Part shown: positions 41,055 through 43,886 of the stretch, piece by piece | How positions within the stretch are numbered: position 1 is the first letter of the stretch | Layout: every line of letters begins with the position of its first letter | Assembly (NCBI GenBank): GCA_963724765.1 | Contig: CAVRVY010000001.1 | Coordinates: 800,001-864,000, forward strand | DNA: 64,000 nucleotides | Reading direction: 5' to 3' | DNA from: an uncultured delta proteobacterium | GTDB taxonomy: Bacteria; Desulfobacterota; Binatia; Binatales; Binataceae | Made by a program: the position numbers and the translations under genes | The notes under the pieces: model-generated | The model's database searches: none | The model's input: the letters and a program-made list of their open reading frames with translations, nothing else | Told to the model about the DNA's origin: nothing

Positions 41055-41126
41055 CGCGGCGCGCGTCCGCGCGGTTCTCGCGGCCCGGCCCCGCTCCGTG
41101 CTAAACGGGCATTGGAGGATCCCGCG

Positions 41127-41972
41127 ATGCAGCTTGAAACCCTGGCCCACGGCTACGGCCTCATCGAGGGGCCGCGCGTCGACGAACGCAACCGGCTCTA
41201 CTTCAGCGACGTGCTCAATGGCGGCGTCTACCGGCGGAGCCCCGACGGTGGCATCGAGACTCTCATCCCGCGCCGCCGCGGCGTCGGCGGAATCGCGTTC
41301 AACGCGGCGGGCGGAATCGTATGCAGCGGCCGCAGCCTGATCGGTTGGGACGAGGCGACCAGGCAAAGCCGCGACCTGTTCACCGAATGGGAAGGCCGCG
41401 CGACGCGCGGACTCAACGATCTTACCGTCGACGCGCAGGGTAGCGTCTTCGTCGGATCGCTCGAGTTCGACGCGCTCAGCGCAGACAAGCCTATCCCCGG
41501 CGACGTCTTTCGCGTCGACCCTCCCAACAGCGTCACCAAGCTGTGGGAGGGGATCGAAGTAACCAACGGAATGGGCTTCAGCCCGGACGCCACGCTGCTG
41601 TATCATTGTGATTCGACCACCAAGGCGGTGTGGGCATATGACGTTACCGGCGACCGCCGGCTCAAAGACCGCCGCGTCTTCGCCACGGTGCCCGAGGGAT
41701 GGCCGGACGGGATGGCGGTCGATGTCGAGGGTGGTGTGTGGGTCGCGGTCGTGCGCTACGGCGAAATCGTGCGCTTCAAGGCCAACGGCACGCTGGAGCG
41801 CAGGATCAAGATGCCGGCGCTGATGGTCACGAGCCTCTGCTTTGGCGGCGCCGACCTGATGGACCTGTACGTGGTCACCGCCGACAACACCGAGGACTCA
41901 AGCCGCAAGGGGACGATATTCAGAATGCGCGCGGACGTCCCAGGATTGGCAGTGCCGAAGGCACGCTTCTAA
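41127..41972 (+). CDS. SMP-30/gluconolactonase/LRE family protein
   Basis: EGP, LNDL.VD, NGMGFSPD, PDGMAVD.EG, TSLCFGG.D; ATG after GGAGG. Confidence 0.93.
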   Translation: MQLETLAHGYGLIEGPRVDERNRLYFSDVLNGGVYRRSPDGGIETLIPRRRGVGGIAFNAAGGIVCSGRSLIGWDEATRQSRDLFTEWEGRATRGLNDLTVDAQGSVFVGSLEFDALSADKPIPGDVFRVDPPNSVTKLWEGIEVTNGMGFSPDATLLYHCDSTTKAVWAYDVTGDRRLKDRRVFATVPEGWPDGMAVDVEGGVWVAVVRYGEIVRFKANGTLERRIKMPALMVTSLCFGGADLMDLYVVTADNTEDSSRKGTIFRMRADVPGLAVPKARF

Positions 41973-42114
41973 ACGAGATTGGCAGTGCCGAAGACACGCT
42001 TCTAAAACGGACTGGCAGTGCCGAAGGCACGGTTCTAAAAAAGACTGGCAGTGCCGAAGGCTCGCTTCTAAACGAGAGTGGCAGTGCCGAAGGCACGGTT
42101 TAGAGAGTTGGCAG
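41944..42114 (+). repeat. 33-bp tandem direct repeat array (5 copies plus a partial) duplicating the gluconolactonase 3' end
   Basis: TGGCAGTGCCGAAG starts at 41947, 41980, 42013, 42046, 42079; partial TGGCAG at 42109; internal GTGCC-GAA-GGCAC hairpin. Confidence 0.95.
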
Positions 42115-42141
42115 CGGAAAAACTCATACAAGGAGACGCGG

Positions 42142-42609
42142 ATGGCCTTACAGGTGGGACAGCAGGCGCCCGACTTCACGATGAAGTCGAACAAGATGAA
42201 GGACGTGAAACTCTCGGAGTTGCGCGGCGACAAGGTGCTTTTGTTGTTCGTGCCACTGGCGTTCACCGGCACCTGAACCAAGGAATTCTGCAGCGTGCGT
42301 GACACGCTGGGAGAGTTCGAACAGCTCGGATGCAAGGTGTTCGGAATTTCCACTGACAGCCCGTTCGCGCTCGACTCGTGGGCGCGCGAGCAGAATTACC
42401 AGTTCCCGCTGCTCAGCGATTACAACAAAGAAGTGTCGCCAGCCTACGATTCGATGTACGCCGAGCTGCTGGGCTTCAAGGGCGTGTGCAAGCGTTCGGC
42501 TTACGTGATCGACGGCCAGGGCAAAATCCGCTACCGCGAAGTGCTCGAAGACGCGCGCCAGGTCCCGGACCTCGAAGCGATCAAGAAGTGTCTCAAGGAA
42601 ATCTCGTAG
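42142..42609 (+). CDS. Selenocysteine-containing peroxiredoxin (AhpE/BCP-like, AhpC/TSA family)
   Basis: AGGAG SD, MALQVGQQAPDF...FVPLAFTGT-TGA-TKEFC...GISTDSPF...FPLLSD...RSAYVID; TGA 42274-42276 occupies the PxxxTxxC peroxidatic site; frame continues to TAG 42609 (155 aa). Confidence 0.9.
42283..42318 (+). promoter_or_regulatory. Putative bacterial SECIS element
   Basis: GAAUUCU-G-CAGCGUG-(CGUGA)-CACGCUG-GG-AGAGUUC two-stem hairpin; apical loop begins 21 nt after the UGA and has GU at loop positions 2-3. Confidence 0.75.
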
Positions 42610-42680
42610 CTTGTGCGAGCCGTCGGCGCGGATTCCGATCTGCACCGACGTTCGCCGTAAACCGGAGTGGCGCTTAGCGA

Positions 42681-43886
42681 ATGCCTAATACCCTCGATGG
42701 AATAGTCGCGGTCGACCTCACGCAGAACGTGGCCGGCCCATATTGCACCCAGCTCCTCGGCGACTTCGGCGCCACGGTGATCAAGATCGAACGCCCCGGA
42801 AGCGGCGACGATTCGCGCGGCTACGCTCCCGCATGGCATGGCGGCGGGGCCGAACCAGGCGACTCGACCGCGTTTTTAGCGTACAACCGCAATAAGAAGA
42901 GCGTGTGCGTCGATCTCGACCATCCGGCTGGAGCGGAGATCGTGCGCCGGCTCACCGCCAACGCGGACATCTTCGTGCATTCGCTCAAGCCCGGCAGCGC
43001 CGAGGCGCGCGGGCTGGGCTACGACGATCTGAAGGCGCACAACCCGAGGCTCATCTATGCCGCAATCAGCGGCTTTGGCGAGAGCGGTCCGATGCGCCTT
43101 CTGCCCGGCTACGATCCGCTCGGCCAGGCGCACTCGGGCGTGATCAGCGTGACCGGCCATCCCGGCGCGCCGCCGGCGCGAGTGGTTGTTCCTATTATCG
43201 ATATGGGCTCGGGGCTGTGGCTGTTCTCCGGAGTGCTCGCGGCGATCATCGAGCGCGGCAAGACCGGGCTCGGGGCGAAGGTCGGCGTGAGCCTGCTCGA
43301 AACCGGCGTCGCGTGGACCACGCTGCACATGAGCAACTACATGGCGACCGGCGAGGTGCCCGAGCGCACCGGCTCGGCGTCGCCCGCGGCGGCGCCTTAC
43401 GAGGCGTTCGAGACCGCGGAGGGATGGATCATGATCGCGGCTGGCAACGATCGTTTGTTCGGCCGGCTGTGCGAGCTGCTGGGTATTTCCGAGATCGCCG
43501 CGGACGATCGCTTCGGAAGCAACGCGGCGCGCGTGCCGCGGCGCGCCGAACTGCACGCAATTATCGAGGAGCGCACGCGGCGGCGTCCAACCGAACACTG
43601 GGTCGCGGCGCTGCGCGAGGTGGGCGTGCCGTGCAGCCCGATCAACCGGCTCGACCAGGTGCACGACGATCCGCAGGTCAATGCGACCGGCATGATCAAA
43701 CGAATCGAAGGCTTTCGCGTGCCGAATTTCGAGATCGTTGACGTCGCGGTCAACGTCAACGGCGAGAAGGCGGTGCTGCGCTCGATGGCGCCGCGGTTGG
43801 GCGAGCATACTGGCGAGGTGCTGCGCGCCGCCGGCTATACTGAGCGCGAAATCGCCGCGCTGCGCGCGGCCAAAACGATCGGTTAG
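42681..43886 (+). CDS. Family III CoA-transferase (CaiB/BaiF)
   Basis: DLTQNVAGPYC..LLGDFGA.VIKIE, NRNKKS, GYD, APRLGEH. Confidence 0.95.
   Translation: MPNTLDGIVAVDLTQNVAGPYCTQLLGDFGATVIKIERPGSGDDSRGYAPAWHGGGAEPGDSTAFLAYNRNKKSVCVDLDHPAGAEIVRRLTANADIFVHSLKPGSAEARGLGYDDLKAHNPRLIYAAISGFGESGPMRLLPGYDPLGQAHSGVISVTGHPGAPPARVVVPIIDMGSGLWLFSGVLAAIIERGKTGLGAKVGVSLLETGVAWTTLHMSNYMATGEVPERTGSASPAAAPYEAFETAEGWIMIAAGNDRLFGRLCELLGISEIAADDRFGSNAARVPRRAELHAIIEERTRRRPTEHWVAALREVGVPCSPINRLDQVHDDPQVNATGMIKRIEGFRVPNFEIVDVAVNVNGEKAVLRSMAPRLGEHTGEVLRAAGYTEREIAALRAAKTIG

Follow-up and report, generated by a model that had tools for sequence, protein, structure and literature searches.

The DNA analysed here, called the window below, is a stretch of 64,000 nucleotides (nt), C1:800001-864000 of the 5.4-Mb, four-contig assembly GCA_963724765.1 of an uncultured bacterium of the Binataceae. 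The forward strand of the window carries, at 42142..42609, a gene for a PrxQ/BCP-like peroxiredoxin (Prx) of 155 codons followed by TAG, in which the codon of the peroxidatic residue is TGA. We consider it very probable that 42142-42609 is a genuine peroxiredoxin gene with this TGA decoded as selenocysteine (Sec); what doubt is left concerns mostly the insertion of selenium.

The peroxiredoxin gene and its family

The reading frame starts with ATG 42142. A Shine-Dalgarno-like AAGGAG (42130..42135, forward strand), read directly from the sequence, lies 6 nt upstream of the start codon, and the same stretch, AAGGAGAC, precedes the start codon in most related loci. The frame contains a single in-frame TGA, codon 45, and is otherwise open up to the TAG at 42607-42609. 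Translated with TGA as Sec (U), the protein begins with MALQVGQQAPDF. Around the active site FVPLAFTGT is followed by the TGA (42274-42276) and TKEFCSVRD, and further downstream the same frame passes through GISTD, FPLLSD and KRSAYVID. This is the arrangement described in the original prediction, which had recognised the start signals, placed the TGA on the Cys of the PxxxTxxC motif and followed the frame up to the conserved Arg of RSAYVID. As it had also foreseen, conventional gene calling breaks the gene up: the listing of open reading frames (ORFs) under translation table 11 contains just two pieces, 42142-42276 with 44 amino acids (aa) and 42295-42609 with 104 aa.

The active-site motif P38-L-A-F-T42-G-T-U45 (PxxxTxxU) occupies 42253..42276 of the forward strand, as do the other codons named here. 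Its last codon, the TGA at 42274..42276, is aligned with the peroxidatic Cys of the homologues and corresponds to the peroxidatic Cys in solved PrxQ structures. The TGC at 42289..42291 encodes Cys50, the candidate resolving residue, and the CGT at 42493..42495 encodes Arg118, the conserved peroxiredoxin active-site Arg. P38, F41, Cys45 (the position of U), T46, E48, C50 and R118 are invariant in alignment A1, which includes 47 sequences. The U-x4-C spacing had been likened to that of BCP/PrxQ, and the likeness is confirmed: S. solfataricus Bcp1, described in PMC5056240 as an atypical 2-Cys enzyme forming an intramolecular disulfide, has its peroxidatic and resolving cysteines (CP45/CR50) with the same spacing and the same numbering as U45/C50 of the window protein.

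The protein matches Pfam AhpC-TSA (PF00578) with an E-value of 1.4e-37 and 128.9 bits, compared to a cut-off of 26; the match is one stretch that aligns residues 5-131 to profile positions 1-123 of 124. The closest solved proteins by sequence, 2ywn/4g2e (3.9e-34), 2cx3 (3.1e-29) and 3hjp (4.7e-26), are all CxxxxC PrxQ/BCP. These archaeal proteins (2ywn/4g2e from S. tokodaii, 2cx3/4gqf from A. pernix and Bcp4, 3hjp, from S. solfataricus) have the C-T-K-E-x-C stretch in common with the window protein but differ from it in having Cys in place of Sec, and the identity is about 35-36% in the Foldseek alignments. An AlphaFold model built from the 47-sequence alignment has a mean predicted local distance difference test score (pLDDT) of 86.7, with 55 over residues 41-50, which form the active-site turn. 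The best Foldseek match of this model is 3hjp, with a template modelling score (TM) of 0.89; A. pernix PrxQ in its locally unfolded form (4gqf) is also among the top matches.

The original prediction had called the enzyme AhpE-like. Archaeal CxxxxC PrxQ/BCP score 120.9, 105 and 94.6 bits, whereas M. tuberculosis AhpE scores about 77 bits (~1e-20). The top six Foldseek matches are all PrxQ/BCP, with AhpE close behind and TM up to 0.89 for each. Judged by sequence, the enzyme is nearer to the archaeal CxxxxC PrxQ/BCP than to AhpE, the two being about equal by fold. M. tuberculosis AhpE (1xvw/1xxu) resembles the window protein in size, in the FxPLAFTG context and in the fold, but it is a 1-Cys Prx according to its PDB titles, whereas the window form has a Cys at the x4 position. 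The relatives with Gly at position 50, discussed below, are AhpE-like in the missing Cys50 only.

The scores remained below the cut-offs of three curated families: E. coli-type Bcp equivalog (NF006960, 81.8 bits vs 140), PrxU (NF040737, 69.9 vs 270) and Prx-SUH (NF045827, 50.8 vs 298). PrxU and Prx-SUH are likewise Sec-containing thiol peroxidases of the same superfamily, but with scores this far under the cut-offs the window gene is a member of neither.

Conservation of the TGA codon and of the downstream stem-loop

A protein search of a large collection gave 896 matches; 120 of them were listed, and the protein counts below refer to these. All 108 full-length Cys homologues among them have Cys at both positions 45 and 50. 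Two have Trp at position 45, being gene calls with TGA read as Trp. The remaining ten are N-truncated proteins of 103-107 aa which begin just past the TGA and have 92-96% identity, the kind of truncation expected from standard gene callers.

For the DNA of relatives, 30 loci were taken from one-genome-per-species contigs and 41 from metagenomes, 71 in total. Codon 45 is TGA in 11 of the genome loci and 18 of the metagenome loci, i.e., in 29 loci besides the window, all of them Binataceae-type and 77-98% identical. Four loci of the same close clade (L024, L028, L054 and L055) have TGC instead, and all the more distant loci with a readable motif have TGC or TGT (Vicinamibacterales, Chitinophagales and Actinomycetota, the latter retrieved at 37-41% identity). 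Nine weak metagenome loci (L081-L089, 35-43% identity), in which the codon was not read, and genome loci L045, L047 and L048, where Cys is seen in the translations, fall outside the motif pattern. The suggested alignment of homologues has found TGA at this column throughout most of one close clade and Cys elsewhere.

With the window there are 30 TGA sequences, of which 29 keep the frame intact and 27 are distinct as DNA. Of the 29 other TGA loci, 28 show neither an additional stop nor a frameshift. The exception, L040 (905-1368), is a second Sec-Prx copy near a contig start in the same metagenome-assembled genome (MAG) as L026; it is frameshifted after approximately residue 91 and may represent either a paralogue in decay or a duplicate produced by assembly. 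The ratio of nonsynonymous to synonymous divergence (dN/dS), calculated for 12 pairs with dS up to 1.4, is 0.02-0.17 over codons 1-44 and 0.07-0.20 over codons 46-130. Both halves of the gene are thus under purifying selection and kept as protein.

The codon was also looked up in public sequencing runs, where TGC or TGT would have counted against the original prediction. One DNA contig and two RNA-library contigs span 42274-42276, and no letter different from those of the window is listed there for any of the three. The RNA-library contigs belong to metatranscriptomes of different studies, and one of them has a Cys50-to-Gly variant. Run X1 does not cover the TGA; sequencing depth and expression level are not readable from contigs.

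The TGA is followed by a hairpin resembling the bacterial Sec insertion sequence (bSECIS). The whole two-stem hairpin (42283..42318, forward strand) is the minimum-free-energy (MFE) fold, and its loop CGUGA begins 21 nt past the UGA. It consists of a core (42291..42309, forward strand), with a 7-bp upper stem (42291-42297/42303-42309) closing the loop at 42298-42302, and a lower stem (42283-42289/42312-42318). According to the model in PMC13188914 (Fig. 2 legend), a bSECIS has a loop of 3-9 nt with G in the first two loop positions, an upper stem of 4-16 bp, a UGA-loop spacing of 16-37 nt and MFE of -7.5 kcal/mol or lower. Checked by hand, the hairpin in the window lies within all these published constraints: the loop is 5 nt long with G at position 2 followed by U, the stem has 7 bp, the spacing is 21 nt and MFE is -11.6 to -20.8 kcal/mol, depending on the length folded. 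Scanning of the window with Rfam at gathering thresholds has found no match, and no curated family corresponds to this hairpin.

In all 30 TGA rows, which amounts to 22 of 22 distinct rows, the six inner pairs of the upper stem are kept, and the outermost pair fails in five of these 22. Lower-stem pairs are often unpaired in relatives, columns 16 and 39, for example, in 14/22 distinct rows. Of the two-stem hairpin originally proposed, the upper stem-loop is therefore conserved while the lower stem is not. Conservation of the core is visible at synonymous positions as well. For codons 51-55 (S V R D T), most of which are four- or six-fold degenerate, the synonymous pair fractions are 0, 0, 0.07, 0 and 0, compared to the gene mean of 0.275, and the seven-codon window from codon 50 has the lowest synonymous variation of 147 windows.

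The stem looks different where codon 45 encodes Cys. Inner upper-stem pairs are broken in all four close Cys forms, which still encode V-R-D-T-L: the stem-breaking changes are synonymous, GTG to GTA in L028 and L055, ACG to ACA plus CTG to CTC in L024 and L054. Across 18 Cys-form rows 61.9% of the cells are paired, as against 89.3% on Sec rows.

Decoding of the UGA codon

The Sec machinery predicted from the gene is present in its own genome. selB, selA and selD score 383, 561 and 388 bits (curated cut-offs 242, 268 and 125, respectively), and a tRNA-Sec was found with 70.2 bits and, according to ARAGORN, the anticodon UCA. Together with the homologues and the public runs described above, all three grounds for refutation named in the original prediction have turned out in its favour. 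TGA has not been reassigned in this genome: it is the commonest stop codon, found at the end of 968 of the 1994 stretches that are open over 400 codons or more (TAG ends 628 and TAA 398).

selD, which adjoins selB (G000:C3:1462704-1463630, minus strand), is a selenoprotein gene, too, with one in-frame TGA at the active-site position, in the context KAAG-[TGA]-AGK, and then a bSECIS-like hairpin whose loop GGA begins 17 nt past the UGA. Another probable selenoprotein is encoded on the minus strand of C2 (TGA at G000:C2:98435-98437). This redoxin-like protein has a W-[TGA]-P-Y-C (UxxC) motif of the thioredoxin type in a frame of 372 aa, and a hairpin follows here too, with the loop GUC beginning 21 nt past the UGA.

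The genome also contains a 91-nt tRNA of Sec-like architecture with the anticodon GCA (G000:C4:64275-64365, minus strand; L012 1499-1589). Its score on the tRNA-Sec model is 61.9 bits, with a gathering threshold of 47, and U follows the acceptor stem. It agrees with the "selC* tRNA-Cys" class of Mukai et al., which PMC5389517 describes from anaerobic Firmicutes, Thermodesulfobacteria, Nitrospirae and Proteobacteria. The gene is located in an ORF-poor stretch of lower G+C content, an ordinary 76-nt tRNA-Cys is encoded in the genome as well, and BLAST found a relative of the GCA tRNA in one of five related genomes.

We propose that the UGA at codon 45 would be recoded co-translationally, with Sec inserted instead of termination by release factor 2. 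SelB carrying Sec-tRNA(UCA) would bind the downstream stem-loop and bring Sec to the ribosome. In the resulting enzyme, the U45 selenolate, placed by P38, T42 and R118, is expected to attack a hydroperoxide and become a selenenic acid. Once the active-site helix has unfolded locally, Cys50 could resolve this acid into an intramolecular selenenylsulfide, and a thioredoxin-type reductant would presumably reduce the selenenylsulfide. A U45-C50 selenenylsulfide in the window form is suggested by analogy, since S. solfataricus Bcp1 has the same spacing and numbering of its CP45/CR50 pair.

Several points weigh against Sec decoding of the window gene. The single-sequence fold is only moderately beyond chance: set against 200 dinucleotide shuffles, its energy is -20.8 kcal/mol for 62 nt (z -2.1, 7/200 shuffles as stable), -19.2 kcal/mol for 48 nt (z -3.18, 2/200) and -11.6 kcal/mol for the 25 nt of the upper stem-loop alone (z -2.56, 4/200). 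With z as modest as -2.1 to -3.2, the weight has to come from the comparison with relatives. No covariation was found in the hairpin across the 22 distinct Sec rows, in which 493 of 500 shuffles reach the score and the paired-cell percentage and only one two-sided change occurs; the case for the hairpin therefore rests on its invariance and on the contrast with the Cys forms. This contrast in turn comes from one lineage, because the four close Cys forms are a single clade (99/97), so the stem decay represents two sublineages with different mutations and not four independent events. Codons 11-17 form a second region of low synonymous variation. The RNA-library contigs do not prove transcription. 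Finally, a 74-nt tRNA-like gene carrying UCA in the anticodon position is present elsewhere in the genome, though its anticodon arm is aberrant.

The latter gene is relevant to the alternative which survives best, although we consider it improbable: the UGA may be read, but not as Sec, either by near-cognate readthrough (Trp or Cys) or by another tRNA, e.g., the UCA-bearing one at C1:1040840-1040913. Cys at this position would yield an active enzyme, and both the UCA tRNA-like gene, with 51.1 bits on the Rfam tRNA model, and the Sec-like tRNA with the GCA anticodon could be seen as candidates. However, the GCA tRNA reads UGC/UGU, not UGA, and in the UCA tRNA-like gene the anticodon stem has 4 bp and the loop, GAUCACG, no U33. 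A general suppressor would also be costly, because TGA is the commonest stop. A conserved bSECIS-like stem-loop that lies at the right distance and decays once the codon is TGC is what SelB-dependent decoding leads one to expect.

The UCA tRNA-like gene is one of two adjacent aberrant tRNA-like genes (G000:C1:1040722-1040913, minus strand; L098 4722-4914). In its Ser-like neighbour of 95 nt the variable arm is long and the anticodon arm abnormal.

It is very unlikely that the gene is a nonsense pseudogene, dead or dying after a mutation that turned its Cys codon into TGA. One change from TGC to TGA would suffice for this, and public annotations do hold relatives as truncated proteins (10 of the 120 clusters listed). 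However, the TGA is fixed in the 29 other loci across the range of 77-98% identity, 28 of them free of a further stop or frameshift, and dN/dS does not exceed 0.2 on either side of it. This purifying selection on both sides of the TGA excludes the pseudogene for practical purposes, and together with it the even less probable reading in which the locus makes two products, a peptide of 44 residues that stops at the TGA and a protein of 104 residues starting from GTG 42295. Two products would match the table-11 ORF listing and several public gene calls, but the split would fall inside the active-site helix of one thioredoxin-fold domain, across the continuous Pfam match, and would sever the catalytic motif from Arg118; besides, the same frame is already coding ahead of GTG 42295. 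A sequencing or assembly error at 42276 can be dismissed, as it has no specific support and the same TGA occurs in independently assembled MAGs, in metagenome contigs and in the three site-spanning contigs from public runs.

Evolution and setting of the gene

In a maximum-likelihood tree of 48 rows, rooted at the midpoint with a "GVCT" Cys group of 66-77% identity on the other side, every deep branch of the close clade carries Sec forms (L030, L067/L068, L066/L025 and L065/L057). The Cys forms L024, L054, L028, L055 and P0002 make up one group (99/97) nested among the Sec forms. The simplest reading of this tree would be one gain of Sec from Cys, then one Sec-to-Cys reversion, followed by decay of the SECIS. 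The root is a midpoint one and the gene is short; P0004 and P0005, whose codon was not checked, also nest among Sec forms. For Prx, Table 1 of Zhang et al. (2006; PMC1794560) gives five Cys-to-Sec events and no Sec-to-Cys event, whereas the tree of the window clade suggests one such reversion.

Loss of the Sec trait as the cause of the Cys forms was considered and rejected: both Cys-form genomes tested keep selA and a tRNA-Sec(UCA). In the genome of the Cys form L028, the selA match (G002:C4:499281-500634) consists of two adjacent pieces in different frames, corresponding to model positions 1-339 and 342-444. The split may stem from an erroneous frameshift, or selA may have been inactivated in this Cys-reverted genome.

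The candidate resolving residue also varies in the clade. Cys50 is kept in 17 of the 29 intact Sec forms and replaced by Gly in the other 12, which have no new Cys elsewhere; nine of the Gly50 forms belong to one supported clade and three are unresolved. The broken copy L040 has Gly50, too. Loss of Cys50 was not found among the 108 Cys-form proteins (matches listed), nor in the Cys-form loci with the motif read. We tentatively suggest, as a possibility that we hold to be somewhat doubtful, that Sec at the peroxidatic position made the resolving Cys dispensable and permitted a switch from a 2-Cys to a "1-Sec" enzyme, in a clade which also includes an apparent reversion and a decaying "fossil" SECIS. 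In a "1-Sec" enzyme with Gly50, direct reduction of the selenenic acid would fall to an external thiol or to Cys150. The U45/C50, U45/G50 and C45/C50 forms, at about 90% identity, constitute a compact natural series in which the benefit of Sec to a peroxiredoxin and the decay of a SECIS once Sec has reverted to Cys could be studied.

Peroxiredoxins with a TxxU motif have been catalogued as a bacterial selenoprotein family since at least 2005 (PMC1088965); the same source, a Sargasso Sea survey, gives 43 Sec-Prx sequences, assigned to COG1225. A 2026 review places Sec-Prx with PxxxTxxU among the verified families (PMC13188914), in line with the premise of the original prediction that such proteins exist in bacteria. 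As described in these two sources and in PMC1794560, the catalogued proteins share with the window clade the AhpC/TSA fold, Sec at the peroxidatic position of PxxxTxxU, a bSECIS shortly after the UGA and the wide occurrence of Cys homologues. The window clade differs in coming from Binataceae MAGs of soil and peat metagenomes, and the two were compared by description. The gene is a mis-annotated addition to a known Sec-peroxiredoxin family, from Binataceae of soil and peat. A literature search for selenoproteins in Binatota showed, among the matches listed, no paper on the subject by title; in the one paper on Binatota, the word selenocysteine appears in the references alone. This outcome is limited to the searches made and is no claim that the clade is unpublished.

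The finding adds a Binataceae clade to the Sec-peroxiredoxins and leaves the knowledge of Sec decoding itself unchanged. Its practical side is annotation. In public collections the gene and its relatives appear as N-truncated proteins (103-107 aa), with one cluster of this kind representing 123 sequences, and two entries have Trp at the TGA. Inventories of antioxidant functions and of selenium use in these abundant uncultured soil and peat bacteria therefore miss the gene.

The upstream neighbour is an SMP-30/gluconolactonase-like gene (41112..41972, forward strand; Pfam SGL, 1.2e-60). In each of the 12 related loci displayed, the Prx gene is preceded by the 3' end of a gluconolactonase-like gene, indicating synteny. 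Scanning of 41800-42800 for sigma-70 promoters and terminators gave no sites of either kind. Between the two genes, with a slight overlap of the upstream one, lies a tandem array (window 41947-42097) with a 33-nt period and 4.6 copies. Its unit equals the final 33 bases of the upstream gene including the stop codon and holds a small hairpin, GTGCC-GAA-GGCAC. Within the genome the array occurs only here; its copy number ranges from 1 to about 6 across 13 related loci.

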